The notes below the pieces were generated by a model. It had not been told where the DNA came from. It ran no database searches and worked only from the letters and a program-made list of their open reading frames with translations. The position numbers and the translations under genes are program-made. A stretch of DNA of 63,040 nt from Candidatus Heimdallarchaeota archaeon (lineage in GTDB: Archaea > Asgardarchaeota > Heimdallarchaeia > JABLTI01): NCBI GenBank assembly GCA_019058275.1, contig JAHLVW010000057.1, positions 1-63,040 of the forward strand, written 5' to 3'. Positions 20,222 through 37,574 of this stretch are shown one piece after another; positions within the stretch are counted from its first letter, which is position 1; each line of letters opens with the position of its first letter.

Positions 20222-20249
20222 AGGCCCGTAGCGCAGTCTGGACAGCGCG
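20222..20249 (+). tRNA. Isolated 5' fragment of a tRNA-Arg-like gene (acceptor 5' strand + D arm only)
   Basis: AGGCCCG-TA-GCGC-AGTCTGGACA-GCGC-G; A20 typical of Arg; AGGCCCG pairs with CGGGCCT at 33865-33871. Confidence 0.8.
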
Positions 20250-20288
20250 ATAATAATGACTATACTTTATTGCAAACTTCTAACTGAT

Positions 20289-21980: not shown

Positions 21981-23278
21981 GTACCCTCCATAATTGATGG
22001 TTGAAACTCAAAGAATTTCTTCTGATAAAAATGTCTAATGAGAATGTCAACACCTATTAGAGCCACTAATATGACTGACAAATAGAGTGAAAACTGGGAG
22101 TAATAAGGAACTTTCAGAATCCAATTCTCTGCTTTAATTAGAACTCTAAGAAGATAAACAAGAGAACCAATTCCAGCTCTACAACTAATTGGAAGAATTA
22201 GAAGTAAAACAAATAAATACTCAAAAAGGAAATTACTTGAAATAGTCTTAACTGAAAATCCTCGATAACGTAAAACCAGTATCCTTTCTCGTCGAGTATT
22301 AAGCATATCTTGTACTAGAACAATACCTACAATGAAAAATGAAATACCTACAAAAACACCTGTTGTAATAGATAGTGCTATGATACTTGTAGCAAAAGTT
22401 GGCAAGTAATCTGGATAAACATCGATCCAAGTTGTATGTATAATTGAATAAGGTGTTGATTGTAATGCTTGTAAAAATGTTTGCATTTCTGATTGTTTGT
22501 TGAGTTTAATGATAATAGCTTCCTCTAATGATACAATTGAAATATCTTCATTATGTTGAAGAATTACTTGAAAAGCTGATTCAGTCATGACCAGAAAAGG
22601 AATAGAGTTTTTTTCGAAATGATATGTTGAAAGTTGATAGTCATTCAATAATAGTGGGAAAAGATGAAACTTATCAAAAACTTTGAATTCTTGTTCAATG
22701 AATTGCTCATCATCAGCTGAAATGTTGTTAAAGCCCAATACAATGCTATTGCTTTCTGAACCATAGACAATTCTACTATTAAGAAACACATCCTCTGATT
22801 GAGTAAGAATAGAATTTGGAGTATCGCTGAATTCCTCTAAACCATCTTTTACAATTCCCAAATCATAATCCTTGGAATAAGAGATTGTAGATCCAAAGGT
22901 TTGCGAGATAACTAATACCTGATAATCAATGTCAAAAATTGATAACTGAACAAGAGAATAATTTGCAGCAGATTGGACAGAAGGAATCCCTGACATATCT
23001 GAAAGTAAAGATGAAGTGTTAGAAGGATTTTCTAATTGGATAGCAACATCTAAACCCAGATCAAATTTAGCTGAGTTAGTAGCATGTTGTGATAAATAAG
23101 CTGGAACTAGAAATGATTGAATAAAGAGAAGAAATGAAAGGGTTATGAAAAAGGATTGCTTCTTATGATGTTGAAAAGCAAGAGAAAGATTATGTAGGAT
23201 AATCGAGAATTTTTTAGTACCTTTTTTCCAGAGAGAATGAGATAACTTAACTATTTGTTTCAATAACGAATTAATCAA
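21977..23278 (-). CDS. FtsX/MacB-like ABC permease, probably N-terminally truncated
   Basis: RRERILVLRYRGFS...FLFEY motif, TM-ectodomain-3TM layout. Confidence 0.75.
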   Translation of the reverse strand: MINSLLKQIVKLSHSLWKKGTKKFSIILHNLSLAFQHHKKQSFFITLSFLLFIQSFLVPAYLSQHATNSAKFDLGLDVAIQLENPSNTSSLLSDMSGIPSVQSAANYSLVQLSIFDIDYQVLVISQTFGSTISYSKDYDLGIVKDGLEEFSDTPNSILTQSEDVFLNSRIVYGSESNSIVLGFNNISADDEQFIEQEFKVFDKFHLFPLLLNDYQLSTYHFEKNSIPFLVMTESAFQVILQHNEDISIVSLEEAIIIKLNKQSEMQTFLQALQSTPYSIIHTTWIDVYPDYLPTFATSIIALSITTGVFVGISFFIVGIVLVQDMLNTRRERILVLRYRGFSVKTISSNFLFEYLFVLLLILPISCRAGIGSLVYLLRVLIKAENWILKVPYYSQFSLYLSVILVALIGVDILIRHFYQKKFFEFQPSIMEGT

Positions 23279-24261
23279 AATAAAGAGTAAACATCAACTG
23301 ACTTTCTCCACCGGTTCTTACTTTTGGTTACATTTTTACCATCGATATACACTATTCGATTAAGGAATATATCACGTTCTTTTGCTAATTGAACTAATGA
23401 ATCGTAATACTCACTTTTAACAATACTAGTAAATTCAGAATCAATATGTATTTGTCTAATGGTCTTAGGATTAACTGTTATTGCTTGTTTTATATACTCA
23501 ATAACATCATCATGATTGAGATGAGCTTTTATTTTAGCAATTTCATATAGTGTTCGTAAATTCGTTGGTTGTAAATCATTTAATTTAACCCAATAACGTA
23601 ATGCACAAGGAAAATCTTTTTCCTTTTGAGTATTTTCAGCAAGTGAAACTAATACATCACAATCTTCAGAATCAATTCCAAATAATTTTTCTAACAGTTC
23701 TAAACCTTTCTGATAAAAACCCATTTCGAAATATTTCATGCCAATATGCTTTAGAGCTGGAGGGAAATCTGGTTTTATTGCCAATATTTGAGAATAAAAT
23801 TCATCTGCCTTACTAAATTCACCAAATTTCCAAAAATAATCACCTAATCTAACTAAAGTAATATCATCCTTTGGATTAATTTTCAATATTTTATACCAAA
23901 GATCTAGTGCATTAAGTGGTTGATTTGATTCCATGAAAGTAAGAGCAATATTATATAATGCTCGAGTATCATTTGGATTTAATTCCAAAACTCTATGCCA
24001 AGATCTTAAAGCTTGTTCTTTTCTATCTAAACGACTGTATGCTACTCCTAAATTTAACCAGTATTCAGATTCTTTAGAATTCAATTTTATAGCTCGAAGA
24101 AAATGATTTTTTCCTACAGTTATTCTGCCATCAGTCGAATACCATAATCCAAGTTGATTGTGTGAATCATCATCATCAGGATATGTTTTAACAGTTCGCT
24201 GGAAGTCATAAATTCTTTTTCGAATAAGTTCTTTTCTAGGATCATAAAACATGTTAAACAC
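23275..24261 (-). CDS. Tetratricopeptide-repeat protein (possibly C-terminally truncated)
   Basis: Repeated W.NLG.AY...A....LELNP.D TPR consensus. Confidence 0.88.
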   Translation of the reverse strand: MFNMFYDPRKELIRKRIYDFQRTVKTYPDDDDSHNQLGLWYSTDGRITVGKNHFLRAIKLNSKESEYWLNLGVAYSRLDRKEQALRSWHRVLELNPNDTRALYNIALTFMESNQPLNALDLWYKILKINPKDDITLVRLGDYFWKFGEFSKADEFYSQILAIKPDFPPALKHIGMKYFEMGFYQKGLELLEKLFGIDSEDCDVLVSLAENTQKEKDFPCALRYWVKLNDLQPTNLRTLYEIAKIKAHLNHDDVIEYIKQAITVNPKTIRQIHIDSEFTSIVKSEYYDSLVQLAKERDIFLNRIVYIDGKNVTKSKNRWRKSVDVYSLF

Positions 24262-24382
24262 TCAAAGATACTCTCAAATCTTTTCTTAATAAATTACTAA
24301 TTTAGCTTTTTCATGGAAAAATAACTTTTCTTTACTTGAGTAAGTATTTCAGCAGGTACTTGATTTTCTTTAAAATTTGTCT

Positions 24383-24994
24383 TTACATTTCCTTATACCC
24401 AATGATTCTTACTTTGTTTTGACCAATTAATCGTTTTAATTCGGTTTCAATATCATACGAATCCGCTATTGTTTCATTAATTAATTCTTCTCGCAATTTT
24501 TCTTCTTCTTTTTCTGTTAATTTAAGGTATTTTCTCTCTCTTATCCATTCTTCCTCTATCTCTCTTATTTCTTCCTCTATTTGTTCATTTTCTTGTATCA
24601 AATTGATGATATCTTTTGTTTTCTCTCTTTCCTTATAATTCGCATCATTATAATATTGCCACAATCTATCAACTAAGATATGTTCTTTATTAATCATGTA
24701 TTTTCTTTTCTGATGTTTCAGTACGCCTTCCTTCACTACTCTTTGCAATTTTTCTATTAATCTACTTCTCTTAAGAGGTATTTTTTTCTGTAATTCTACT
24801 AGTGAATATTTCTTTGTATATCCTTTCTCTATTTTTTCTGTTAGAAGCAATTTTATAATTTGGTATGCGAATTCTCCTTCATGTACAGTAATTCTTAGTA
24901 GATTTTTGGTTATCCTTCCTTGATCTTTTATTGAGATTTTTGTTAATCTTTCCAAATCATTAGCTATTGTTTCCTTTCCTATTTCTTCACTCAT
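24383..24994 (-). CDS. Winged-helix / coiled-coil hypothetical protein in the Cas1 operon
   Basis: YSLVELQKKIPLKRSRLIEKLQRVVKEGVL wHTH pattern; E-rich coil. Confidence 0.6.
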   Translation of the reverse strand: MSEEIGKETIANDLERLTKISIKDQGRITKNLLRITVHEGEFAYQIIKLLLTEKIEKGYTKKYSLVELQKKIPLKRSRLIEKLQRVVKEGVLKHQKRKYMINKEHILVDRLWQYYNDANYKEREKTKDIINLIQENEQIEEEIREIEEEWIRERKYLKLTEKEEEKLREELINETIADSYDIETELKRLIGQNKVRIIGYKEM

Positions 24995-25000
24995 TTACCT

Positions 25001-26860
25001 TCATCCTTCCTTTAATGCTAACGGTTTAAATCCTATTTCGTTATGGTAATTTCTTAATTCTTTAACAAACTGGTCTTTTTCTTTTCTATCTAATAATCCC
25101 CATACTCCTTCTCTTATAATTGCCCAAGGTTGAAATGTCACCCCATGATGTTTTATTTCATAGTTGTTACTTTTTATTATGAGATCATTCAACCAATACT
25201 TTCCTTCTAAATAATAGTCATTTATTTTGCTCCTTCCTGTTTTACCATTCATTTTACTGTTTAATGCTTCTTTCACGATTTGTTCTAATTGTTCATTAAG
25301 TTCAGATTGTGGATATACAAAAAACACTTTTTGCCTTCTTCTACCATATTTATATTGTACTTGATTAGGAATTATTTCTTCATTCACTAATGCTTCTATT
25401 AGGAAAGGCAAAACTACAAGTTTAATTGGTTCAGACATATCTAAGTGAAGTCCAAACACCCCTCCCTTTGTTTTTCCATGACATATTCCTGGTAATCCAT
25501 CCCAACAAAAATTAATTTTTGTGCAATATTCTTTCACATAATCTCTCGCTTTGTCATAAACACCATTTATTAGTGTATCAATCGCTGAATAAGAAAAGTG
25601 TAACCCGTATGGTTTGAAATTATCCTGCATTAATCGAGCTGACCCTCTGCCTGGAAAGTATATTCCTATTTTCTCGAAAAAGGCTGCTAATGTCCACCAC
25701 ATATTCTTTGCAGCATCTCTGTCTAGATCGTTCCACTCACTTGGAGTTATTGATGTTTTTCTATTTAATTCTTGTATTTTTGTTTCAATCAGTGTTAAAG
25801 TAGATTTCAATTTCTCTTTATCGAGATGATGAGATATTCTTTGAAGGATTGTTCTTCTGCTTACTAATGTTGCTAAACAAAATTCTTTATTAGCAATCTT
25901 TGTTTCCCGTAGTATATTTAGTATTCCAACTTGCTGTTTTATTGGTGGTGGGCTTTTAATTTTCTCTCCGCCAAAAATCACATGAATTTTTTTATACCCT
26001 TTTGATGGCAAAACATCTAAAAGATAATCATAATCCGATTTTTTTCTAGCAACGATATATTCTAGAGTTGTGAGTTTTCCTACCCAGTTACAAACAACTA
26101 ATGTTTTTGTATTGAAATTGAGTATACAAGATTTAAGATCAGGTATAACAATACCGTGTTTTGTACCAACATATGGGACAATAGTGGAGAAGATGCCTGA
26201 TGCTTTGTAGAAATGTTCCCTATAGACATCCCCTTTTTCTTCTGCATAAATCACTCGAAAGAGATTTTCTTTTTCCTTAAACACAAGTTTGATAATTGAC
26301 TCACAATTTATGCAACGTATAACAGAGCTTCCAAGTTTCGCGATAAATCCATTGCCTATGGGAAGTTCTTCGCCACAAAATTTACAGTGATAACTTGTTT
26401 TGTATCCTGTTTTTGTTCTTGTTACTTTTCTTGTTTCATCCAAAAAATCTTGAAATTTCTTTCTTTCCCAATTTGTTTTTCGATCTATGAACCATTGACA
26501 AGCTATCGTATCATGATCCAGCTTCTTCATTACTCGTCGTGGTTCTTCGATGTATCCTGCATCTGCAAGTTCTTCATAAAAAATACAAGTATCGATAGTA
26601 CTTTTGTTATGACAATTCTTACATTTTTTTCCAATAAATTCAGGCCAAGTATTTTTAGATAATTTATAAAATGCTATTCTTCCCTTAAACCAAACAACTT
26701 CTTTTTTATCAACTCGCTTCTCTTTTTCAAGAATTTTAATGTTTTTAGCAACAAATGCATTCGAACATCCTAATTGGTTCTCAATATTCTTGACAGTTAT
26801 GGGGTATACCCCTGTGTGGTTACTAATTAGTGTTAAGATTTTTTCTTGGATTTCATTCAA
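25001..26860 (-). CDS. cas1: Highly diverged stand-alone Cas1 homolog (casposase/Asgard Cas1-like) with N-terminal wHTH and Zn fingers
   Basis: C-terminal Cas1 motif series LDRDAAKNMW...FPGR...IDTLINGVY...GLPGICH...LHLDMSEPIK; N-terminal HTH, CKNC, CKFC, CINC. Confidence 0.75.
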   Translation of the reverse strand: MNEIQEKILTLISNHTGVYPITVKNIENQLGCSNAFVAKNIKILEKEKRVDKKEVVWFKGRIAFYKLSKNTWPEFIGKKCKNCHNKSTIDTCIFYEELADAGYIEEPRRVMKKLDHDTIACQWFIDRKTNWERKKFQDFLDETRKVTRTKTGYKTSYHCKFCGEELPIGNGFIAKLGSSVIRCINCESIIKLVFKEKENLFRVIYAEEKGDVYREHFYKASGIFSTIVPYVGTKHGIVIPDLKSCILNFNTKTLVVCNWVGKLTTLEYIVARKKSDYDYLLDVLPSKGYKKIHVIFGGEKIKSPPPIKQQVGILNILRETKIANKEFCLATLVSRRTILQRISHHLDKEKLKSTLTLIETKIQELNRKTSITPSEWNDLDRDAAKNMWWTLAAFFEKIGIYFPGRGSARLMQDNFKPYGLHFSYSAIDTLINGVYDKARDYVKEYCTKINFCWDGLPGICHGKTKGGVFGLHLDMSEPIKLVVLPFLIEALVNEEIIPNQVQYKYGRRRQKVFFVYPQSELNEQLEQIVKEALNSKMNGKTGRSKINDYYLEGKYWLNDLIIKSNNYEIKHHGVTFQPWAIIREGVWGLLDRKEKDQFVKELRNYHNEIGFKPLALKEG

Positions 26861-26880
26861 GACAAAATCCCCTTACATTA

Positions 26881-27618
26881 TTATTTGTGAATTAATTTCA
26901 AATTTCTCTTTGAATGATTTATAATTAAATCCAGCTCTTCTTTAGATGGAACATATGGATTAATTATCTCATCCGAATTCACCTCTCCAACTGATTCATC
27001 GTCGTTTTCAAATTCACAGTATTTCTCATACATCTTATCCCTAAATGATACGATTTCAGTTTTTATGATGTCTTCAATTGGAGAATTCACATTGGCATAC
27101 GTTCTTTCTGTTAGTATCTTACTAACCAAATCATTCAAATCAGCATCTGTAATATTTTCTAATATAATTTCAATTCTTTTTTCTTCCATCTTTTTCTTTT
27201 GTATTTTTTCTCGAAGATTTTGTTTCTCGTGTTTTAATTGTTGGCTTAATTGTAGAAGATCTTTTTTTCTTTCATTTATTGTTTGTGAGCTATAAAAATC
27301 ATCACATAAAATAGCTAGTCTTGGATATAATTCATCATCAGATAAAGTATGTTTTACCCATACTTTCTTCTGAACTTTTTTTGTTTCGATCAAACTTTTT
27401 TCTTGTAATGATTTTAGTGCTTTAACTACTGATTTCTCATGTCTTCCTATATTATGAGCTAATTTCTTTAATCCACCAGTGAACCATTCATCCATTCCTT
27501 TGATAATTCTCCATAGAAAATAATAGATTATGTTTTGTTCAACTTTGGTTAACAATAAAATTTGGTAAGACATTTTGCTTATTCCTAGTTGTTTTGTACT
27601 AATCATATTCTTTGACAA
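26881..27618 (-). CDS. Winged-helix DNA-binding protein with coiled coil
   Basis: LKKLAHNIGRHEKSVVKALKSLQEKSLIE. Confidence 0.7.
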   Translation of the reverse strand: MSKNMISTKQLGISKMSYQILLLTKVEQNIIYYFLWRIIKGMDEWFTGGLKKLAHNIGRHEKSVVKALKSLQEKSLIETKKVQKKVWVKHTLSDDELYPRLAILCDDFYSSQTINERKKDLLQLSQQLKHEKQNLREKIQKKKMEEKRIEIILENITDADLNDLVSKILTERTYANVNSPIEDIIKTEIVSFRDKMYEKYCEFENDDESVGEVNSDEIINPYVPSKEELDLIINHSKRNLKLIHK

Positions 27619-28441
27619 AATCTTTTATAAAAAGCTAAAAACGGTTTTTTTGACGCTTAAATATAAAATAACCGTTAACCATTTGAGAATATTGTTGGAA
27701 GAAGGTTTCACTATAAGTAAAACAGAATTTATTGCATACTTGCATTGTTCATTTAAATTTTACATATTAAAGGAACTTAATAACGATGCGAAATCGGGAG
27801 CTACTTGGATAACTGATCTTACTGATCATAGACCAGATATACAAGAAGGTTTGAAATGGCATCAATGGTTTAATGATTTTTATAATAAATATGGAGAAGA
27901 TATACGTAATGGTGTTTATCCAATTATTAACGGAAAAGATGAAATTTTAAAAAAGAAATTCATCGATTTAGAGATAAAACGTTATAATAATTCTCCGCAG
28001 TTTTGGGAGCCTATTGGAACAGAGTTTATGCTTAATGATAATTATCTCAAAGGAAAAATTGATCGTATTGATAAAGTAAATGAACAAGGTCATTGTCGAA
28101 TTATTGAATATAAAAAGAATCCAGGGTTTTTTGATAAAGAAGAATTATTATTTTATACATTATTATTATCTAATACTCTTCCACACCCGGGGTTACCTGG
28201 AATCATACAAGTAACTCAGATAGGGACCTATTATTATAATATCGGAGAATTCAATATTGATAGTATTAGTCTTAATGAAAGACAAAAGTTTGAGCAATTT
28301 TTGCATAATATTCGGAAAGAAATGCTACAACCTAATCTAGCTAAAAATCAAAATTGTAATTTTAAACGTACAAATTGCTTATATCATGAAATTTGTCGTA
28401 GAATAAGGATAGAAAAAACAGATATTTTATCGGACTTCTAA
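27575..28441 (+). CDS. Cas4/AddB-like PD-(D/E)XK nuclease with 4-Cys Fe-S motif (true start probably TTG at 27683-27695)
   Basis: ISKTEFIAYLHC...GLKWH...LKGKIDRIDK...IIEYKK...C-terminal C-x6-C-x5-C. Confidence 0.8.
   Translation: MLIPSCFVLIIFFDKIFYKKLKTVFLTLKYKITVNHLRILLEEGFTISKTEFIAYLHCSFKFYILKELNNDAKSGATWITDLTDHRPDIQEGLKWHQWFNDFYNKYGEDIRNGVYPIINGKDEILKKKFIDLEIKRYNNSPQFWEPIGTEFMLNDNYLKGKIDRIDKVNEQGHCRIIEYKKNPGFFDKEELLFYTLLLSNTLPHPGLPGIIQVTQIGTYYYNIGEFNIDSISLNERQKFEQFLHNIRKEMLQPNLAKNQNCNFKRTNCLYHEICRRIRIEKTDILSDF
27622..27676. promoter_or_regulatory. Divergent promoter of the Cas1/Cas4 module with inverted repeat AACGGTT...AACCGTT
   Basis: TATA-like TTTTATAA and TTAAATATA; inverted half-sites at 27640-27646 and 27670-27676. 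Confidence 0.45.
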
Positions 28442-28551
28442 GGTTTGACGAATTTTTCATACAAACTATAACATGATTAAATGTTTTTCATAAAGATAAA
28501 AAATCGGACTTTGTTGGTTTTTCTACCAATAAAGATATTTTATCGGACTTT
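28420..28551 (+). repeat. Three direct repeats (T)AAAGATA(TTTT/AAAAA)ATCGGACTT
   Basis: Copies at 28420-28437, 28491-28512 and 28530-28551. Confidence 0.7.
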
Positions 28552-28681
28552 CGAAAAAGTTAGCAAGGTTAAGAATGTGAAAAAATCGATCTAGGAGTGT
28601 AAGAAAAGGAAAAAAGTGGTGGAAACACCTCCCTCATATATTATAAGGTTCTTTGTAGAGCTTTCTAAAGCAAAATCACAA

Positions 28682-30358
28682 TCACTTGAGTAGCTCATTT
28701 TTCCATTTTTTCCGTAAAAGTGTAAATTGCTCAGCATTGATGATTTGTTCTTCTGGTTGATACATAATAAATGTTCTAAGATATTTTGCCAAAAGGTGAT
28801 TAACGAATCTAACTCCTTTTACAAGTGTAGCAAAATTATCATAGAATAATTGAGAAACTTCTTGACCATTATCACAAATATTGACATATTTTTCACGTGG
28901 TTCGAGATAAGGTAGAAGCTCAAGCAATTTGGAAGTAGGTTGTAATGGCAATTTAAGAGGTTTAGAAGTTGAAATTTGAAATGTTATATGTTTATAATGC
29001 TCTGCTAAAATTTGCATAACGGAAGAATTTTGTTCAAGATTAGTATTAACAATTTTTTGAAAAAGCGTTATTGGAGTTGCATGCTTATTTTTCTCATAAT
29101 TGGAATAACTGCTTTGAGAAAGCTGTAATAATTTTCGCATTTCAGTATAACTTCGATTATTACGAATAGATATGAGATAATCATCTAATCCTAAAACCGT
29201 TATACCTATGAGTTTTGTAAAGTCAAAATAACCATCAGAGGTGAGAGTTTGGTTATTAATTCCTTTGAATTTGGTAGAATATCTTCTGCGTTGAATTAAC
29301 TGATAAAAATCTTGCATTTTCTTGGGATTTAAAACACCAATCAAATTTGCATAAGCACTTGTATATTTAATCGGTAAAGAAATTAAATAAGGGCCAGAAT
29401 TTAACTGGGTTTTTTTTGTTTTAATATTATATTCCTGCAAATAGTGTTGAAAATCCTCAATATATTTTTCACTCGCACTACAAAAATTAATTCCTTTCTT
29501 AAAAGAGCCATCTGCATCCATAGCACCACGCCAGTATAGACTCCGGAAAGGTTCGCCGAAGTGCTTGAAAAGTAAGGGTTCTCGAAGGGAATCATATTTA
29601 GCACCTTGAATAGTGTGGTCTGTTAAAAAATTGAATAAACAGACAGCAGAAGAGGATCTGAGTTCGATATTCCATGCATTACCTGTTTTGAAAACTCGAC
29701 CAGCATCAGAAAACACTGAATCAAATAGTTTTGATAATAGCATAATATGTTCTTTCGTTTCATCAACAACTCGCAACCAATGTCTATGAAGATGACCATC
29801 ACCATTAATGACACCACAAAGATAAGCTAATTTTGGGGAAAGTACAATCGGGATAGAATAACGTTTTCCTCGAGCACTTTCAAAATACAAATACTCCGGA
29901 AAAGTAGCAGGAATTCCAATGTGAGCCCAAGCACAACGAACTAAAGGAAATGGCATAGCACCACGATTAATATAATATCGAATTGCAATGCGCCACTCAA
30001 GAATGCTCTTATTAACTGACTTGTAAAAATAGTTTCGAGCAACCTCAGAGATAAGAAGATCTTTCTCCTTAATTCGGTGTTTTTCTTCGTCTGTTAAAAC
30101 AAGGAAAGGGAACCGAGAAAGAATGCGATCGCTTGTTTTTTTCCTTACAAAATCAATACGATGAACAAGAATAGGAAACAGGTTTAAGGTTAAGGAATCC
30201 TGATCAAGGAAGATTTTATCAATCTGGTTTTTTTCAACTAACTTATTAGCAGTAATCCAATGAGGAAAATTAGTGCAATCTTTATCGTAAAGCAAGGGAT
30301 CTGTAGACCAATGAAGAGGATCCAGCATAGTAATACTCCTACAAGTAATAGTTCTCAA
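28682..30358 (-). CDS. Free-standing double-motif LAGLIDADG endonuclease fused to XRE-type HTH
   Basis: LAYLCGVINGDGH and LYWRGAMDADGS; RSYTEMRKLLQLSQSSYSNYEKNKHATP HTH; no intein ends; start probably near 30328. Confidence 0.8.
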   Translation of the reverse strand: MRTITCRSITMLDPLHWSTDPLLYDKDCTNFPHWITANKLVEKNQIDKIFLDQDSLTLNLFPILVHRIDFVRKKTSDRILSRFPFLVLTDEEKHRIKEKDLLISEVARNYFYKSVNKSILEWRIAIRYYINRGAMPFPLVRCAWAHIGIPATFPEYLYFESARGKRYSIPIVLSPKLAYLCGVINGDGHLHRHWLRVVDETKEHIMLLSKLFDSVFSDAGRVFKTGNAWNIELRSSSAVCLFNFLTDHTIQGAKYDSLREPLLFKHFGEPFRSLYWRGAMDADGSFKKGINFCSASEKYIEDFQHYLQEYNIKTKKTQLNSGPYLISLPIKYTSAYANLIGVLNPKKMQDFYQLIQRRRYSTKFKGINNQTLTSDGYFDFTKLIGITVLGLDDYLISIRNNRSYTEMRKLLQLSQSSYSNYEKNKHATPITLFQKIVNTNLEQNSSVMQILAEHYKHITFQISTSKPLKLPLQPTSKLLELLPYLEPREKYVNICDNGQEVSQLFYDNFATLVKGVRFVNHLLAKYLRTFIMYQPEEQIINAEQFTLLRKKWKNELLK

Positions 30359-30500
30359 GAATATTCATAAATTCTGCTTTGAAAAACTGTACAAGTAACT
30401 AATTTTTCAACTAATTAATTAAGCTAATGATTAATACTTTCAGTGACCACTATAAATAATAACTATATAATGAGCTAAATATATTACTATACGAGATAAA

Positions 30501-32675
30501 ATGGAAATTAAAAAAATAAATCCTTCAAGGAAAATACTTTATCAAGCTAAGAAACCAAAAAGAGGAACGTTTTATCAAATTTATACAAATGGTACTTTAG
30601 AGTTTATGGGAGGAATAACTACTAAAAATCAAATTCATATTTCAAATGATATAAGAAAATGGAAAAGATTACCTAGTGAAAAGAATAAAGATTCACTTAT
30701 TGTAAAGGTGACTTACTATTTTATTAACTGTTTAGAAGAAGAAGAACAGATTTCATGTCAATCAGAAATTATTCATAATGGTTATGGAATATATTTACAA
30801 CCGTTGAATACAGATTTGAATTATACAAAGATATTAGCAAAATTAAAAGAAAGAAAAATAACTTCTTGTAGTATTCCAGGAATGATAAATGGTAAAGAAC
30901 AGCTAGAATCAACAGAATATTTTATCAAAAGCTCTAATTTAAGAGAAAAATGTGAAATTCCAGCAATTGAGAACCTTATTCCATTAGTAAATGGGGGGTA
31001 TCAAGAGTCAGAATTTTCTATATATAAAAGTAAAACCGAACAAATTTATATCAAACAAATAGGGAGGATAGATCATTGGGGACAATTTCGCTTATCAGCT
31101 GACTTGTTCAGATATTTCCAAGATTGGGAGGAAATACCCAATTTCGTTTGTTCAAAAGAGCAAGCTGAAGAATATTTTATACCATCAAGTGTGCATAAAC
31201 GAAAAACTGGCAAGAGAACCAAGAACCTTAATTTTCCGATTTATGAAGAACCACAAAGAATAGAAGTTCTTTTTACTAATCCATCATTAACTCTAACTAA
31301 TGAAGCAAAAAAAACAATTAATTTTAAAAAACAATTAATTAAAAATAATTTTCCGATAATTTCTTTAAAAATAAATGCAAGAACAAAAGAGACACATATT
31401 GACAAGAATTTTGAGAGAAAATGTATAGAAATTTTCCAAAAATTGAACAAAAAAATACCTAAAGCAACATTAGCAACAGAAGTTGACCTATTTATTGATT
31501 CTAATTATAATACTACAGGTAATAAGAAATGTTTTGATATAGTCTTTTATGTACCGCTATTTAATAGTGAAATGACATTAATACTCTCCGAAATCCGTAC
31601 TAGTCAAAAACATTCTAAGTATCTAAATACTAGCGGAATAGCAGAACTTTTTCATGTAAAAAATATTATACAAAGCCATTATTTTATACCAAACATTTTC
31701 TTAAATAGAGAATTATTCAACCCGCATAATATCGATGTTACAAGGTTATTTAGTCATACAATAGGTATACCCATTATTAATAAAAAATCTATAATGCAAT
31801 ATTATATTGAACCACTAAGATTATTGACGTATTTATCAAATTTTAAAGGAAAAGAAAAACAAACTACATCATCCAACAAAATGATTCATCCATTTACTCA
31901 TTCTTTAGTAGATAATAATGACTATTATGCTCAAGCATTTGATATTTTACAACTAAAAGATCAAAAACAGACATGTAACTCATTCAAACATTATTTGTTA
32001 TTTATGGGGATAAGAGAAAAAGAGTTTTCATTAATTGGAAGAGAATATATCACTAAACAGGAAATTACTTCAATCATCCGGTACTTAAAACAACAAAGAA
32101 AAACTAGGCTGTCAACAGAAGAAAAAGGAGCTTTATTATTAATACATAATTTATTAATAAAGCAAAATTCTTTTGCTTATCTAAGCTCATTAGAAAAAAA
32201 AGAGAGAAATAATGATATAGACCTGCTTCTAAAAAATAAAAAATTAATTGAAAAATCATTACCAATAAATGTAAAGTTATTAGGTTTTCATAAATCAAAT
32301 AGCAAAGGGGGAAATTTTGAAAGAGAAATTAGGAGAAATTATGAAGATTTCGGATATGAAGTAATATCAAACTTGCTTATTTCATGTGGGGGACAGCTAT
32401 TCGAAATAGATAATCTGGTTATTAGTAAAACTGGTTTAAGAATAATAAGCTGTAAAGATCATTCCCAATATACACCTTATGATATTTTAGTAAATCATAT
32501 TCGGAATTATGCAAACATCTTAGAATTAAATAATTTTCTACTAGGAAACCAAAAGGCAATTTTATACATCAAAGTAAGAAAAGAGTATGCTAACCAATTG
32601 AAAGAAAAATACGAAATAGAAGATTGGACAAAAAATGTCCAGATAAAAATTTTAAAAGCCAAATTAAGTGTCTGA
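30501..32675 (+). CDS. Large protein with two PD-(D/E)XK restriction-like domains and AbrB-like N-terminal motifs
   Basis: FERKC...FDIVF...SEIRTS and GGNFEREI...GYEV...EIDNL...ISCKD; GRIDHWGQFRLS. Confidence 0.6.
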   Translation: MEIKKINPSRKILYQAKKPKRGTFYQIYTNGTLEFMGGITTKNQIHISNDIRKWKRLPSEKNKDSLIVKVTYYFINCLEEEEQISCQSEIIHNGYGIYLQPLNTDLNYTKILAKLKERKITSCSIPGMINGKEQLESTEYFIKSSNLREKCEIPAIENLIPLVNGGYQESEFSIYKSKTEQIYIKQIGRIDHWGQFRLSADLFRYFQDWEEIPNFVCSKEQAEEYFIPSSVHKRKTGKRTKNLNFPIYEEPQRIEVLFTNPSLTLTNEAKKTINFKKQLIKNNFPIISLKINARTKETHIDKNFERKCIEIFQKLNKKIPKATLATEVDLFIDSNYNTTGNKKCFDIVFYVPLFNSEMTLILSEIRTSQKHSKYLNTSGIAELFHVKNIIQSHYFIPNIFLNRELFNPHNIDVTRLFSHTIGIPIINKKSIMQYYIEPLRLLTYLSNFKGKEKQTTSSNKMIHPFTHSLVDNNDYYAQAFDILQLKDQKQTCNSFKHYLLFMGIREKEFSLIGREYITKQEITSIIRYLKQQRKTRLSTEEKGALLLIHNLLIKQNSFAYLSSLEKKERNNDIDLLLKNKKLIEKSLPINVKLLGFHKSNSKGGNFEREIRRNYEDFGYEVISNLLISCGGQLFEIDNLVISKTGLRIISCKDHSQYTPYDILVNHIRNYANILELNNFLLGNQKAILYIKVRKEYANQLKEKYEIEDWTKNVQIKILKAKLSV

Positions 32676-32683
32676 AAAGTAAA

Positions 32684-32822
32684 TGGCGAGTCTGGAGGGA
32701 TTTGTTCCAACAGAAGTCGCAATTTCTGTAGATTGAACCCTCGGCCTGCTACAACTCCCGAATTTGCCTTAGCAAAATTCGTTTAGAAGGCAGCCGCGCT
32801 GTCCTAGCTGCGCCACAGACTC
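32684..32822 (-). tRNA. tRNA-Arg(UCU) with a 30-nt anticodon-loop intron (~32753-32783) and a 31-nt T-loop intron at 58/59 (32702-32732); CCA encoded
   Basis: GAGTCTG/CAGACTC acceptor stem, GCGC D-stem, GCTGC/GTAGC anticodon stem, CT-TCT-A loop, GAGGG-TTCAA[intron]AT-CCCTC; removing both introns gives a 78-nt cloverleaf. Confidence 0.92.
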
Positions 32823-33107
32823 ATCATTTTGTATTTGCTTTTTCTAGGTTTTAGTTTAAAATTGTTACTATTATAAGCGGAATTTGTTTCATTTAGAAAG
32901 TAATTAAATATTATGTCTATTAAATATAAAAGTTAAAGATTCAATAATTAGGGGTGGAGGGGTAATTTTCGCTTGGATAAATCCCATCAGATTAATATTT
33001 TGTTCTTCAAATTAGTACCTTTATTTATTATATTCCGACTTAGAGAATTTTGGTGTTTTTAATAAAAAATACTCAAAGTAAGATAAGGAGAATAACTTGA
33101 TGAAAAA

Positions 33108-33830
33108 GTGAGAAAGATGAAAAGCGAAAGAACAAAATTACAAGAGAATGAGAACTATCGAGGAGTTTTTTCTGGAACTTTTAAAAGATTCGGAGAGAAA
33201 AGAGGATACAATGGATATCCTGAAACAACGGTTTTGCTGGTGAATATACAAGATAGAGACGGGACTATTGTAGGTGACCACCTTTGGTTTAATTACACTA
33301 AAGGATTCAAAGAATTAGGTGAACTAAAAGTTGGTGACATAATTCAATTTGATGCAAGAGTGAAGAAGTACTACAAAGGTTATCAAGGATATCGTGAAGA
33401 TGTTCCTAGAAGTCAGAAACGGGATTACAAACTAAGTCATCCAACAAAGATGTCTATTATTGGAATTAATTATGACTTTCTTGAAGAATTAAAGAAAAAG
33501 CAAGAACTTGAAGAACAACGTGAAAAATATGAAGCACTTAATAAAAAGATCTATAGATATTTGATAAGTAAGTTCTTGGTTAAAAATAAAAGTAATGTGT
33601 CTTGTCATTTAGTTTACATACTTAGTAAGAAAGAAATCTGTTATACCGTTGTGGATTACAATGGAGAATTAGAATCCTTGTCAAGTGATGAACTTGATGA
33701 GTTACTTCTTAGAATTAAAAATAAGATAAGAAGTGTGATTGTTGGTTTTGATATAATAAGTTTCAAAACAGATTGGTTTTTTGATAAAAAAAGGAGAAAG
33801 AAGTTGCTATTTAGGTTATCTTTACACTAG
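33108..33830 (+). CDS. Conserved hypothetical protein of phage/mobile-element type (possible OB fold)
   Basis: F.GTFKRFG.K...TVLL.NI...DHLWF..TKGF...GD.IQFDARVKKY.KGY...DYKLSHPTK pattern. Confidence 0.6.
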   Translation: MRKMKSERTKLQENENYRGVFSGTFKRFGEKRGYNGYPETTVLLVNIQDRDGTIVGDHLWFNYTKGFKELGELKVGDIIQFDARVKKYYKGYQGYREDVPRSQKRDYKLSHPTKMSIIGINYDFLEELKKKQELEEQREKYEALNKKIYRYLISKFLVKNKSNVSCHLVYILSKKEICYTVVDYNGELESLSSDELDELLLRIKNKIRSVIVGFDIISFKTDWFFDKKRRKKLLFRLSLH

Positions 33831-33842
33831 AACCTTCCTAGA

Positions 33843-33875
33843 AGGTCGTGGGTTCAAATCCCACCGGGCCTGCCA
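33843..33875 (+). repeat. tRNA 3' fragment R1 (variable loop, T arm, acceptor 3' strand, G, CCA)
   Basis: AGGTC-GTGGG-TTCAAAT-CCCAC-CGGGCCT-G-CCA. Confidence 0.88.
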
Positions 33876-33923
33876 TTTGTTTTTGTTCTTAATGATTAAT
33901 AGATTTTGGTGGTGAAATCATGG

Positions 33924-34019
33924 TGTTAATTTTATTTGACATATGTTAAAAATATTTAACAAACAAAATTTTTATAAGTAATGTTAAAATAATTTTACAC
34001 ATGTTAAAAATATTTAACG
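33924..34019. promoter_or_regulatory. Four palindromic operators TGTTAA-N6-TTAACA flanking the TATA box of the MNT-HEPN operon
   Basis: Copies at 33924, 33944, 33982 and 34002; TTTATAAG between the two pairs. Confidence 0.75.
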
Positions 34020-34513
34020 ATTTGAGTCCTTTTTTTGAGGATAATTATAGACGGATAAATATTAGAGAATACGCAAGAATATTAAAAATAAGTCCTCCTT
34101 CTGCTTCAAAGACGTTAAAAGCATTTGCAAAAGAGGGCTTACTAGTTTTAGAAGAAGATAAGAATTACTTGAATTTCTCCACAAATAAAGTCAGTAATCT
34201 ATTTCTTCATCTCTCAAGATTATACTGGTTTCAAACATTTGATGAAATTGGTTTTCTCGATTATCTTGAAAAGGAATTAATTGCCCCTACAATTATCTTA
34301 TTTGGTTCCTTTGCTAAAGCTGAAGTGAGAAAACAATCAGACATCGATATAGCAATTTTTTCTGATTTGCAAAACGAGCTCAATTTTGATGTTTTCGAAC
34401 AAAAACTTCAAAGAAAGATACAGCAGTTTAGATTTGAAAGTAGAGACAAAGTTCCAACTCAAGAGCTCTTAAACAATATACTAAGTGGATTTATTTTAAT
34501 GGGAGGATGGTAA
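34001..34513 (+). CDS. HTH + minimal nucleotidyltransferase (MNT) antitoxin
   Basis: IREYARILKISPPSASKTL; ILFGSFAKAE...SDIDIAI. Confidence 0.88.
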   Translation: MLKIFNDLSPFFEDNYRRINIREYARILKISPPSASKTLKAFAKEGLLVLEEDKNYLNFSTNKVSNLFLHLSRLYWFQTFDEIGFLDYLEKELIAPTIILFGSFAKAEVRKQSDIDIAIFSDLQNELNFDVFEQKLQRKIQQFRFESRDKVPTQELLNNILSGFILMGGW

Positions 34514-34514
34514 A

Positions 34515-34922
34515 TTGGATTGGAAAGCCTGTCAGAGATCTAGTTTAGTTAAAACTATTAAAGTTGATTCTAATCTTATAAAGTCTCTTGTAAAAGAATC
34601 TGCTAAGAAATTAAGAACTCAGAATCAAATTTTGCTAAGTGATGAATCTGCTTCCTCCAAAATAACTTTAGCTTATGATGCTGTTAGAATGGTTTTAGAC
34701 GCAGTAGCAATAAAATGTGGTTATAAAATATATAACCACGAATGTTTTAGAGCATTCTTAAAGGAGGTTTTAAAAGAATCTTCTTTGGGAGATGAATTTG
34801 ATAAATACCGAAAAATAAGAAATGCTATTAATTATTATGGAAAAGAAGTCTTAGCTGTTGGTTCTGAAAAAATAATCTCCGAATTGATTGATTTTCATCG
34901 TAAAATAAGAAGATTTTTGTAA
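34515..34922 (+). CDS. HEPN-domain toxin (partner of MNT)
   Basis: AYDAVR...GYK..NH...RKIRNAINYYG; directly downstream of MNT. Confidence 0.8.
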   Translation: MDWKACQRSSLVKTIKVDSNLIKSLVKESAKKLRTQNQILLSDESASSKITLAYDAVRMVLDAVAIKCGYKIYNHECFRAFLKEVLKESSLGDEFDKYRKIRNAINYYGKEVLAVGSEKIISELIDFHRKIRRFL

Positions 34923-34937
34923 AGGAAATCTTTTTTT

Positions 34938-34956
34938 GGTCCTGGGTTCAAATCCC
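34938..34956 (+). repeat. tRNA T-arm fragment R2
   Basis: GGTCCTGGGTTCAAATCCC. Confidence 0.75.
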
Positions 34957-35393
34957 TTTAAATTTGCTATTTTTTCCAAGCTCTCTTTTTTCTTTTGCTA
35001 TTGGATCGATTACGTTTATATTGGGTATTTGTTTGAAAGACTGATCGTGTGTTAACAGCTTCTTTATTTTCTCCTCTTCCATTATTGCTAATATACATGC
35101 ATCTCTTCCCCCTAATCCCAGATGTTTTGTCTGGTAAAGCTTTTTAACCACTTTTTCTAATAATTTTCTTTTACATCTAGTATTTTGAATTCACCTTGTA
35201 TAAACATCATTGCTTTATCTTTTGCTTCATTTCTTTCCAATCTTCTAAACAAGTAATGAATTGTTTCTATTGCCACTATGGTTATAATGACTACTTCTTT
35301 TTTCTTCAGATATTCTTCTAAAATCTCAACTGTTTTTTCGTGTTCAGGCATGTTTTCATCAAAATAATAGGCTCAAATATTTGAATCCACCAT
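34948..35393 (-). pseudogene. vapC: VapC/PIN toxin pseudogene (nonsense codon plus frameshift)
   Basis: MVDSNI*AYYFD (TGA at 35373-35375), VAIET, frameshift near 35165, then RDACILA...LLTHDQSF. Confidence 0.82.
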
Positions 35394-35398
35394 AATTG

Positions 35399-35641
35399 TC
35401 AGACATTTTTCTCCCAGATAGTTTTCAGTTCTAATGGTTTTATTTCTTCTTTTGATCCTTTCTTTGTTATACAACCTTTTAATTTTGAGGAAAACTCTTC
35501 AAATGATATTACTTTTCGGATAATCAGCTCTTTTCCTTTTCTTTCTAGCTGTAATGTCATTCCTGGTTCAAGTCCTAAAGCTTTTCTTTCTTCCTCTGGA
35601 ATAACTATTCTTCCTTTCTCATCCACAGTAATCTTACTCAT
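35399..35641 (-). CDS. AbrB/MazE/SpoVT-family antitoxin
   Basis: TVDEKGRIVIPEEERKALGLEPG. Confidence 0.9.
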   Translation of the reverse strand: MSKITVDEKGRIVIPEEERKALGLEPGMTLQLERKGKELIIRKVISFEEFSSKLKGCITKKGSKEEIKPLELKTIWEKNV

Positions 35642-35800
35642 TATCTTACACCATTCTCTCTTGGACCAATCATGATTCTTTCTTACTATTATTAGTTCTA
35701 TCTTAGATATAGAAACAATGATATTTTATGGTTAATTTATCCCTTTTTACCATTTATTATCACATAAATACTAATAATTAAAACTTATGTGTTTGGTGGA

Positions 35801-35832
35801 AAGTCGAGGTTCAAATCCCCCCAGGCTTGCCA
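35801..35832 (+). repeat. tRNA 3' fragment R3 (degenerate)
   Basis: AAGTCGAGGTTCAAATCCCCCCAGGCTTGCCA. Confidence 0.8.
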
Positions 35833-35835
35833 TTC

Positions 35836-36222
35836 CTATTTCTCTTTTTCGATTACAATTTTACTCTTTTTTCCTTCACTAATTATCCTAATGATTTTTT
35901 CTGTAACTATTGTGAAATTTCCTTCTAGTTTTTTTGATTGTGATTTTAGTAGTTTTTGTATAACTCTTATCTTGTTTTCAGTTCTTTCATCTTCTAGTTT
36001 TAATAGTATTGCTCCCTTATGTGATTTCTTCGAGCGAGTAATTAATTCTCCGAAATCCTTATCATTTGTTATCAAAATATAATTCTTTTCATTTGCTATC
36101 TTAAGTATACTATCGTCATCTGCTCCTCGTACTTCATCATATACTGAATAAACTTTATGTCTTTGTTCCTTCAACCATTTAGCCACCTTTGGTTCAGTAC
36201 ATTCATCTACAAGAAATCGCAT
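35836..36222 (-). CDS. DUF5615 PIN-like toxin
   Basis: MRFLVDEC...GADDDSIL..A....ILITNDKDFGEL. Confidence 0.88.
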   Translation of the reverse strand: MRFLVDECTEPKVAKWLKEQRHKVYSVYDEVRGADDDSILKIANEKNYILITNDKDFGELITRSKKSHKGAILLKLEDERTENKIRVIQKLLKSQSKKLEGNFTIVTEKIIRIISEGKKSKIVIEKEK

Positions 36223-36224
36223 TG

Positions 36225-36473
36225 CTAGACTGCCTCTTCTACGATAGGGACAAAAGTGGTGTTTTCTAATGTTTCAGAAGCATATAAAAGGCAGGCAAGT
36301 ATATCCTCTCTGGTTAATCCATCATATTCTTCTATAATTTCCTCGAAAGTTATGTCATTAGCTAAGAGATTCAATATGAATTGCACTGTTAACCTCGTGC
36401 CTTTTATAACTGGTTTTCCTGTCATTATTTTCGGATCTAATGTTATCCTTTCAAGGAGCTTTTTTTCTGTCAA
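36225..36473 (-). CDS. DUF433 antitoxin
   Basis: RITLDPKIMTGKPVIKGTRLTV...EEIIEEY..LTREDILACLLYA. Confidence 0.92.
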   Translation of the reverse strand: MTEKKLLERITLDPKIMTGKPVIKGTRLTVQFILNLLANDITFEEIIEEYDGLTREDILACLLYASETLENTTFVPIVEEAV

Positions 36474-36609
36474 ATTTAGTTACTCTCCTTTAACTTATTA
36501 TTAGTATAATCTTAAATATAAAAACAATGATGTTTTATGATTAATTTGCTTTTTCTCTTGTCTTTTAACTCATATACATTAAGATAAATATAGCTTATGT
36601 GTATAGGAC

Positions 36610-36641
36610 GGTCGTGGGTTCAAATCCCACCGGGTCTACCA
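36610..36641 (+). repeat. tRNA 3' fragment R4
   Basis: GGTCGTGGGTTCAAATCCCACCGGGTCTACCA, two substitutions relative to R1. Confidence 0.88.
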
Positions 36642-36656
36642 TTTTCTTTAATGTGC

Positions 36657-37574
36657 TTATTTTAATAAAACTCTTAAATTTCTTTTAAGAATAGGTAGGC
36701 AATATTTAACATATGAAGGGTGGTACATATCTAGCTTTTGTTCTATTGAATTCACAATCTCTTCTTCTCCTTTTCCTTCTAGGATTACCATTGTTTCTTC
36801 TTCAGTTAAATCCTCAAACCTTCTAGTATTCTTAATTGCAGTTTTGTTAGCTGGGCAATACTTTTGACATTTCATACAACCAATTAATGCATTGTGAGCA
36901 TCTGCTTCTATCCATGAAGGAAACTCTCCTTTAATTTCATTGTATAGTGTAATGCATTTCTCAACGTCAATGATAAAATCATCTTGAGAAATAGCTTGTG
37001 CAGGACATTTATTTATGCATATAGAGCACTTTTCGCATTCATCGAGCATTTTTGCTTCTTGAAAATTATCCTCATTAAAATCATAATCTGTATAGAAGCA
37101 AAATAGATTTACTAAGCTTCCTAATTCATCAACATAGCAAATATTATTTCTTCCATATTTTCCCAATCCACTTCTTGTAGCTAATAGCTTTAAATGTACA
37201 GTTCTAACCCTTTCTACTCTATATCCCGGTTCTTTTATTACATCATCTAAAATTGATTTAGTTATATCTTCTTCAGTTACTTCTGATGATAAGTAATTTT
37301 GAGGAATCATCACCTCATGTATGACTCCATTATAATGGAAGTTGACTAAAGCAACTTTGCTTTCTAATGCTAAAGCAATGACATATTTTGCTTCCTGAAA
37401 TTCATCTGGGAGTTGAAACTTAAAATTGCCAATATATCCTCTTAGTATTTTATTTTTACTTATTTTTCCCTTTTGATCCAATTCATCTATATCTTCTTGT
37501 AATTCTTGTAAATGTCTTATGGGCATTACTTTATATTTCACTTTTAGATTTTTTAGAGTCAATTCGTTAGACAT
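36657..37574 (-). CDS. QueG/reductive-dehalogenase-like 2x[4Fe-4S] protein
   Basis: KLLATRSGLGKYGRNN, CEKCSICINKCPAQAI, CITLYNE, GCMKCQKYCPAN. Confidence 0.8.
   Translation of the reverse strand: MSNELTLKNLKVKYKVMPIRHLQELQEDIDELDQKGKISKNKILRGYIGNFKFQLPDEFQEAKYVIALALESKVALVNFHYNGVIHEVMIPQNYLSSEVTEEDITKSILDDVIKEPGYRVERVRTVHLKLLATRSGLGKYGRNNICYVDELGSLVNLFCFYTDYDFNEDNFQEAKMLDECEKCSICINKCPAQAISQDDFIIDVEKCITLYNEIKGEFPSWIEADAHNALIGCMKCQKYCPANKTAIKNTRRFEDLTEEETMVILEGKGEEEIVNSIEQKLDMYHPSYVKYCLPILKRNLRVLLK

Follow-up and report, generated by a model that had tools for sequence, protein, structure and literature searches.

The 63,040-nt window analysed here, a whole contig (JAHLVW010000057.1) of the 4.1-Mb, 32% G+C metagenome-assembled genome GCA_019058275.1 of Candidatus Heimdallarchaeota archaeon, carries an array of three small toxin–antitoxin (TA) cassettes separated by copies of the 3′ end of a tRNA-Arg(UCU) gene. 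The array is real, its cargo differs between species, and the tRNA-Arg(UCU) gene at which it is sited is broken; attachment-site (att)-type recombination supplied in trans is its most probable origin. An extra copy of the 3′ end of a stable-RNA gene is called a tail, and the four tRNA-Arg(UCU) tails of the window are called R1–R4. The genome under study is G000, its sister species is G004, and G005, G007, G008, G009 and G010 are genus-mates. C-numbers denote contigs of G000 unless prefixed by another genome.

The four tails are co-oriented, and each corresponds approximately to the last 35–40 bases of tRNA-Arg(UCU):

33817..33883 (repeat part 33841–33883), forward strand: R1, the 3′ piece of the old tRNA-Arg(UCU) gene, with intron remnant, variable loop, T arm, acceptor strand, CCA and T-rich trailer
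34935..34977, forward strand: R2, with the T-arm half intact, the acceptor half mutated and no CCA
35687..35840, forward strand: R3 (35798–35840), a diverged copy, with a 110-nt upstream arm
36496..36649, forward strand: R4 (36607–36649), the outermost tail, with a 110-nt upstream arm; the conserved chromosome begins here

The core GGTTCAAATCCC had exactly four matches in the window, all on the forward strand (at 33851, 34945, 35808 and 36617). By chance 0.21 matches were expected, and none of 100 shuffles reached four. Successive tails were spaced 1094, 863 and 809 bp apart. An earlier reading of this DNA, made from the letters alone (the sequence-only reading), had reported four co-oriented tRNA T-arm fragments with an invariant core, spaced by about 1.1, 0.86 and 0.81 kb, and the counts, shuffles and measured distances confirmed both points. 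R1 was 100% identical to the intact tRNA-Arg(UCU) gene of G007 from GGTCGTGGG through CCATTT. It was 88% alike to R4 over 43 nt, both having a complete T arm, the acceptor 3′ strand, the discriminator base, CCA and the T-rich trailer. R2 and R3 were 63–67% identical to R1 (R3 67%), and all four tails were of the tRNA-Arg(UCU) type. The acceptor half of R2 reads TTTAAATTTGCTA, GC-to-AT transitions having changed CCGGGCC to TTAAATT, and the T stem of R3 is mismatched.

The gene from which the tails derive is no longer intact in G000. Its two pieces flank an island that carries a replacement gene:

20222..20249, forward strand: 5′ piece of the old tRNA-Arg(UCU) gene (positions 1–26), comprising the acceptor strand AGGCCCG and the D arm, with a conserved promoter region upstream
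20250..33816: island between the tRNA pieces, 13.6 kb
32687..32822, reverse strand: replacement tRNA-Arg(UCU) with two introns, in the anticodon loop and the T loop (Rfam tRNA model, 37.9 bits against a cut-off of 29)

The 5′ piece was found by searching for the complement of the R1 acceptor strand CGGGCCT. In G005, G007, G008, G009 and G010 the same promoter and 5′ end run on into an intact tRNA-Arg(UCU) gene with one anticodon-loop intron, and in G000 and G004 the homology to this intact gene ends after position 26. R1 retains part of the intron, and the anticodon stem has lost its 5′ half. The old tRNA-Arg(UCU) gene is therefore broken, its pieces split by 13.6 kb. No intact tRNA was found at the proximal end of the stack, where only positions 1–26 (at 20222) and R1 are present. 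Trans-splicing of the 20222 piece and R1 as a split tRNA was rejected on inspection by eye, since complementary pairing between the flanks was not evident and only the 3′ half of the anticodon stem remains.

The replacement gene has an acceptor stem different from that of the old gene and is the sole tRNA-Arg(UCU) found in the G000 assembly. ARAGORN, and Rfam at the gathering threshold, returned no tRNA in the window; the replacement emerged through a motif search and a local Rfam scan. Its second intron, approximately 30 nt long, splits the TTCAAAT core that is invariant in the array tails. A related tRNA in G006, with the same acceptor stem (GAGTCTG), has no T-loop intron. The T-loop intron fits the idea that tRNA introns shield genes from integrating elements. 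The replacement-tRNA region is inverted relative to its neighbours in G004 (C364 3045–3246 versus window 32675–32876, 73% identity), which indicates that the island was rearranged between these two species.

Three operons occupy the intervals between the tails, and a host gene follows R4:

34001..34922, forward strand: cassette 1, a winged helix-turn-helix (wHTH)–MNT nucleotidyltransferase (34001–34513; Pfam Polbeta/NTP_transf_2) and its 135-aa HEPN-like partner (34515–34922)
34948..35641, reverse strand: cassette 2, an AbrB/MazE antitoxin (35399–35641) and a PIN/VapC pseudogene (about 34948–35390), from Pfam
35836..36473, reverse strand: cassette 3, a DUF5615 PIN-like toxin (35836–36222) and a DUF433 antitoxin-like protein (36225–36473), Pfam E 1e-24 and 6e-24
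36657..37574, reverse strand: 4Fe-4S QueG-like/reductive-dehalogenase-like gene of the host flank, outside the array

Each interval thus holds one TA-type pair, and each pair belongs to a different family (MNT/HEPN-like, AbrB/VapC with VapC as a pseudogene, and DUF433/DUF5615), as the sequence-only reading had stated. DUF433, DUF5615, AbrB/MazE and MNT passed the Pfam cut-offs; the HEPN match of the MNT partner covered its full length and was below threshold (E 0.026). The VapC gene is broken by one in-frame TGA plus a frameshift near 35155, and its PIN match is C-terminal only (E 0.0014). A Pfam scan of the open reading frames (ORFs) detected no integrase, recombinase or integrase fragment in or beside the three cassettes, which encode TA proteins only. 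The same reading had described these 0.8–1.1-kb units, bounded by tRNA-tail copies, as small and integrase-less, and as such they stand. The gene ends abut the repeats as tightly as it had claimed: the VapC frame ends within the T loop of R2, the DUF5615 stop lies 3 nt past the CCA of R3, and the QueG-like stop lies 13 nt past the CCA of R4. Reverse transcription primed by tRNA, considered because toxin 3′ ends abut CCA, was dropped because the orientation of the cassettes is mixed.

The arms of approximately 110 nt upstream of R3 and R4 are homologous (74.5% identity). These arms, the lack of an intact tRNA at the head of the array and the break in VapC are absent from the sequence-only reading. 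The R4 arm aligned with the region upstream of DUF433 in G008; it is thus the native promoter region of the DUF433 operon, and the AbrB–VapC unit holds a second copy. Just upstream of the wHTH–MNT gene, at 33924–34018, two direct copies of the partly palindromic motif TTTxACAxATGTTAAAAATATTTAAC lie 58 nt apart. The pair is also kept in the MNT–HEPN homologue of G009 and is probably the operator of the MNT TA operon.

The cargo of the array differs between sister species, which makes this tRNA end a site of gene capture. G004 was 93.5% identical to G000 over 4.7 kb (window 41343–36610), and the homology stopped exactly at R4, so that only this tail and its flank are shared. G004 carries four tRNA-Arg tails, three of them beyond the shared one. 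Its inter-tail units are empty (370 bp) or contain a GNAT acetyltransferase or a 258-aa protein of no assigned function, and a TPR gene lies past its innermost tail, up to the contig end. R4 and its G004 counterpart have the same C-to-T change in the acceptor strand, which implies that this tail was already a spare copy in the common ancestor. Four other assemblies or runs, 99.4–99.96% identical to G000, carried exactly the same array, and exact-protein contig look-ups gave matches only in strains carrying it. Turnover is therefore visible between species and not between strains. The variable cassette content that the sequence-only reading expected at the syntenic locus was found in G004; among strains at least 99.4% identical the content was fixed. 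A pattern search allowing three mismatches found no further Arg tails in the genus members with an intact tRNA-Arg(UCU), and across the genus it yielded a single lone addition (G004:C166).

Another reading takes the tails as functional RNA elements under selection, for example tRNA-like processing or termination signals for the adjacent operons, and not insertion scars. The tails do end in CCA followed by a T-rich run that resembles a tRNA terminator, and gene ends abut them. Such a role is nevertheless highly improbable: only one of the three operons shares the strand of the tails, the others being antisense, R2 lacks the acceptor strand and CCA, the T stem of R3 is mismatched, and the tails mark the exact points at which related genomes differ. 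Rfam matched no family to the tails beyond the T-arm fragment.

Homologues of the cargo were found between tails of other genes. In G008, a DUF5615–DUF433 unit (74% identical) lies between tRNA-Ala tails with both edges conserved: the toxin stop (CTA on the tail strand) follows CCA plus 3 nt, and the other edge is approximately 120–135 nt upstream of DUF433, as in G000. This unit, recurring with the same edges, therefore behaves as a discrete unit. An MNT–HEPN operon (75% identical) lies between tails of a third tRNA in G009, with different edges, and is fused to a DUF433 remnant with no tail between the two. On C99, a distant DUF433/DUF5615 paralogue is flanked by copies of a tail repeat made of the final ~59 nt of the 23S rRNA gene and its trailer; this repeat had 48 BLAST copies in G000.

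From these observations we infer an accretion array at a tRNA-Arg(UCU) att site, built by conservative site-specific recombination with a recombinase acting in trans, an explanation that we hold to be about evenly balanced between right and wrong. Small integrase-less DNA units, the three TA operons of 0.8–1.1 kb, would have been inserted successively at the att site, with the crossover in or beside the T loop, at the core GGTTCAAATCCC. Every unit would arrive with an inexact tRNA end of its own, and each insertion would leave a hybrid site, its left half from the left unit and its right half from the right unit or the host DNA; these hybrid sites would be R1–R4. R4 would be the oldest tail, retaining the original host right half. 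The recombinase would be supplied in trans, and the TA operons, being addictive, would persist in the stack. Since insertion into spare tails is harmless, such a stack can grow. Of the sequence-only reading's proposal that cassettes were added one after another at a tRNA T-arm site by a trans-acting integrase, the tail-bounded integrase-less units and the species-variable cargo are borne out by observation; the chemistry, the crossover position, the order of insertion and the action in trans are matters of interpretation.

Spare tails also occur elsewhere in G000, behind at least six other tRNA genes (tRNA-Thr, tRNA-Pro, tRNA-Val, tRNA-Ala and two tRNA-Leu), each followed by integrase-less tail-bounded units of 0.2–9 kb. 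Some of the small units are empty; the cargo of the others is an aldo/keto reductase, a nitroreductase, an ATC-hydrolase-like protein or an MNT whose HEPN partner is broken. A 6-kb unit (tRNA-Leu, C53) and an 8.6-kb unit (tRNA-Val, C107) contain ABC-ATPase/FtsX-permease genes as their sole cargo, similar to the 4-kb block at 20289–24261 of the window that is missing from G004, and such modules appear to be recurrent cassette cargo. No recombinase was found in the examined small units or in the 6-kb and 8.6-kb units.

The intervals might alternatively be remnants of larger integrase-bearing elements, in which deletions spared only the addictive TA operon next to the att site. The VapC pseudogene points in this direction, as do the empty units (370 bp in G004, about 210 bp in G008 and 241 bp on C19), the DUF433 remnant joined to MNT–HEPN in G009 with no tail between, the resistance of TA operons to loss, and the larger tail-bounded units (6–14 kb) in G000. 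We nonetheless consider such an origin unlikely. Both edges of the DUF5615–DUF433 unit are conserved across two species and two different arrays, the cargo of many small units is a single intact gene that is not addictive (aldo/keto reductase, nitroreductase, GNAT), even the units of 6–9 kb hold ABC/FtsX cargo with no integrase remnant, and integrase fragments are missing in and beside the three cassettes.

The anatomy of the tails is informative about the way in which they arose. Tail lengths ranged from 20 to >50 nt, and most tails began at the variable loop (approximately 33–36 nt). In G000 the left edge varied, from inside the T loop (tRNA-Thr, tRNA-Leu) up to the anticodon stem, and the right edge was fixed as CCA plus the T-rich trailer. 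Some tails were composite. The innermost tail of G004 (T7547) had no mismatches to the tRNA in 19 positions to the right of the T loop and seven in 10 positions to the left (p = 1e-4). R2 showed the opposite pattern, with its left half intact and its right half changed. The second tail of G004 (T6354) and R3 combined a GAGG-type left T-stem strand, the allele of the other species, with a CCCAC- or CCCCC-type right strand. Two tails 267 nt apart behind tRNA-Ala(GGC) on C19 (at 21174 and 21441) had the compensated T stem GTGAG/CTCAT in place of the local GTGGA/TCCAC. This stem matched no tRNA-Ala gene in G000, which indicates that these tails were imported from another host and not copied in place. 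R2 and R3 differed from the tRNA by approximately 18–30%, and the host lineages (G000 versus G004) by 6.5% only. None of 10 units from G000, G004 and G008 had terminal inverted repeats, the end-to-end alignment scores being equal to those of shuffled controls. Since the tails vary in length and some are composite or foreign, they are not plain duplicates of the target. The composite structure, the shifting left edge and the foreign T stems favour att-type recombination in the T loop over target copying in the style of casposons or of clustered regularly interspaced short palindromic repeats (CRISPR). The T loop is an established crossover sublocation of integrases at tRNA genes (Williams 2002, as cited in PMC8813620).

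Several observations weigh against the att-type explanation. In every array, homologous cargo is flanked by the tail type of its own locus (tRNA-Arg in the window, tRNA-Ala in G008, a further tRNA in G009 and 23S rRNA on C99), and under the att-type model the arms should travel with the unit. The edges of the MNT–HEPN unit differ between G000 and G009, and strains at least 99.4% identical show no variation of the array. A search of the whole genome with PF00589 returned six tyrosine-recombinase hits, none of them in the window or beside a tail array, and the sole integrase-like genes in the tRNA-anchored islands are Cas1-like. We know of no att × att exchange by Cas1 chemistry.

One of these Cas1-like genes lies in the neighbouring island, approximately 7 kb upstream of the array and outside the cassettes. 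The genes of this island, which occupies 20250..33816, are as follows:

20289–24261: ABC ATPase/FtsX/TPR block, directly after the tRNA 5′ piece; absent from the otherwise colinear G004 contig
25001–26860, reverse strand: wHTH–Cas1-like gene, from Pfam
within the island: wHTH gene, from Pfam
27575–28441, forward strand: PD-(D/E)XK nuclease
28682–30358, reverse strand: free-standing LAGLIDADG/HTH protein, between the Cas1-like module and the replacement tRNA
30501–32675, forward strand: 724-aa NERD-domain protein, between the Cas1-like module and the replacement tRNA
within the island: 240-aa ORF, function not assigned

Compared with G004, the Cas1 module (24299–28641) was 96% identical and the LAGLIDADG gene only 74%. 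The Cas1-like protein (619 aa) has an N-terminal wHTH and a Cys-rich region, and its C-terminal half gave a marginal Pfam match to Cas_Cas1 (E 6e-5). With the AlphaFold model of this half (pLDDT 81) as the query, the top 50 Foldseek matches in the PDB were all Cas1 or casposase (E 5e-5, TM about 0.5). A profile of the family searched against PDB sequences recovered wHTH proteins only; in the PDB, Cas1 emerged through the fold comparison alone. The motif H-x12-D-x2-E is invariant in the family. G000 encodes at least 15 diverged paralogues, some of them inside tail-bounded elements at tRNA-Pro and on C84, and one in this island. Pfam detected no recombinase among the ORFs of 19–39 kb of the window, no PolB domain in any ORF of 19–34 kb and no Cas2 in the island. 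Separately, hairpin-like elements of approximately 80 nt (AAAAAGACCCGACAG ... CTGTCGGGTCT) were noted at C39:9860–9938, C76:~419 and C91:~253, the last of them 1.2 kb from a Cas1-like paralogue (C91:1479–3335). They might be a small repeat family or the ends of elements.

Under Cas1-driven insertion of the CRISPR or casposon kind, the wHTH–Cas1-like integrase would join incoming DNA at staggered positions on either side of the final ~33 nt of the tRNA, and gap repair would duplicate this stretch. The tails would then be target-site duplications and the cassettes gene-sized 'spacers', a comparison that the sequence-only reading had also drawn. The Cas1 fold of the C-terminal half, its Cas_Cas1 match and the invariant H..D..E motif speak for this process, together with the number of family members, their presence in tail-bounded elements and in this island, and the lack of a tyrosine recombinase in the islands. 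The tails are also of the local type in every array and mostly start alike, at a length typical of a CRISPR repeat, and casposases, which recognise the T-loop region, insert at tRNA 3′ ends and generate tandem arrays (PMC9939771). We judge this process improbable, however, on account of the tails themselves. Their length is not fixed, composite tails join one perfect and one unrelated half, and the C19 tRNA-Ala tails have a foreign compensated T stem. R2 and R3 are too diverged for copies made in this lineage, being 18–30% diverged in an array whose cassettes are absent from a species just 6.5% diverged. None of the 10 units had terminal inverted repeats above shuffled controls, PolB and Cas2 are missing from the island, and known casposon duplications are 14–15 bp long and do not include the T arm (PMC9939771). 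The Cas1-like gene is therefore best described as a real candidate enzyme, predicted from its modelled fold, though the tail anatomy does not look like Cas1 chemistry. It is improbable that the diverged wHTH–Cas1 family of the Heimdall group is a trans-acting integrase that assembles cassette arrays by inserting gene-sized DNA at the tails of stable-RNA genes (tRNA, 23S rRNA). If true, it would be a Cas1-based gene-capture system intermediate between casposons and CRISPR adaptation.

The array shares features with several known systems. Integrase-less cis-mobilisable elements (CIMEs) of streptococci are comparable, and She et al. are said to have described 'gene capture' at archaeal tRNA genes in 2001. 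Of the processes described so far, the nearest is the tandem accretion of elements at tRNA genes, exemplified by the tycheposon stacks of Prochlorococcus islands, where tandem units are separated by partial tRNAs (bioRxiv 10.1101/2020.12.28.424599). As in such stacks, co-oriented partial tRNA 3′ ends lie between units, the content varies among close relatives, newer units push older ones outward, and degenerate partial tRNAs and remnants build up. In contrast to them, the units described here are of single-operon size (0.8–1.1 kb) and all free of an integrase, the array has no associated tyrosine or serine recombinase, the tRNA at its head is broken and replaced, and the host is an Asgard archaeon.

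Integrons, including sedentary chromosomal and archaeal ones and clusters of attC sites lacking integron-integrases (CALINs), likewise have compact cassettes of one gene or one operon that are rich in TA genes, abut a repeated recombination site with their gene ends and vary in content among relatives (Ghaly et al. 2022, PMC9668308). Unlike integrons, the array has no IntI and no attI, its repeat is a tRNA 3′ end, its cassettes are of mixed orientation, and they have their own promoters. A shared 'attC-like' arm upstream of every tail was sought, and among the tail-upstream arms compared only the R3/R4 pair matched. In integrons an attC site, an imperfect palindrome of 57–141 bp, closes each cassette. 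The repeats here are the tRNA-Arg 3′ end and no attC is present, although no dedicated attC model was run. The integron-like array proposed by the sequence-only reading thus resembles integrons in layout only, the six PF00589 hits all lying on other contigs.

Family-2 casposons (Aciduliprofundum boonei, Methanosarcina mazei) and CRISPR arrays resemble the array in the nearby gene of Cas1 fold, the tRNA 3′-end target with a T-loop landmark, and the head-to-tail tandem stack with a repeated target segment (PMC9939771). In contrast to casposons, its units lack PolB, terminal inverted repeats and a Cas1 of their own, and its repeats are 20 to >50 nt long (versus 14–15 bp), uneven, partly composite and partly foreign. 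Diverged Cas1 homologues of Asgard archaea ('aCas1') have been reported as 'possibly associated with novel MGE' (mobile genetic elements; Makarova et al. 2020, CRISPR J 3:156, as summarised in PMC8730458). The present gene likewise encodes a strongly diverged homologue of Cas1, in an Asgard genome that has no CRISPR array, and the summary in PMC8730458 makes no mention of tail-bounded cassette arrays. Heimdallarchaeal elements that integrate at tRNA genes have already been published (PMC8813620). In the literature searched there was no description of operon-sized, integrase-less cassette arrays bounded by tRNA tails in archaea.

Among prokaryotes, Asgard archaea are most closely related to eukaryotes, and the routes by which they acquire and shuffle genes are an open topic. 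In this genome, the ends of tRNA genes, and likewise the end of the 23S rRNA gene, are docking points for very small integrase-less cassettes. At the present locus an essential tRNA gene was destroyed by an island that carries its own replacement, and an intron of the replacement tRNA runs through the docking core, a natural case for the idea of protection by introns. Finding the enzyme would show either that a known recombinase has a further use or that the Cas1 family has an activity not seen before.

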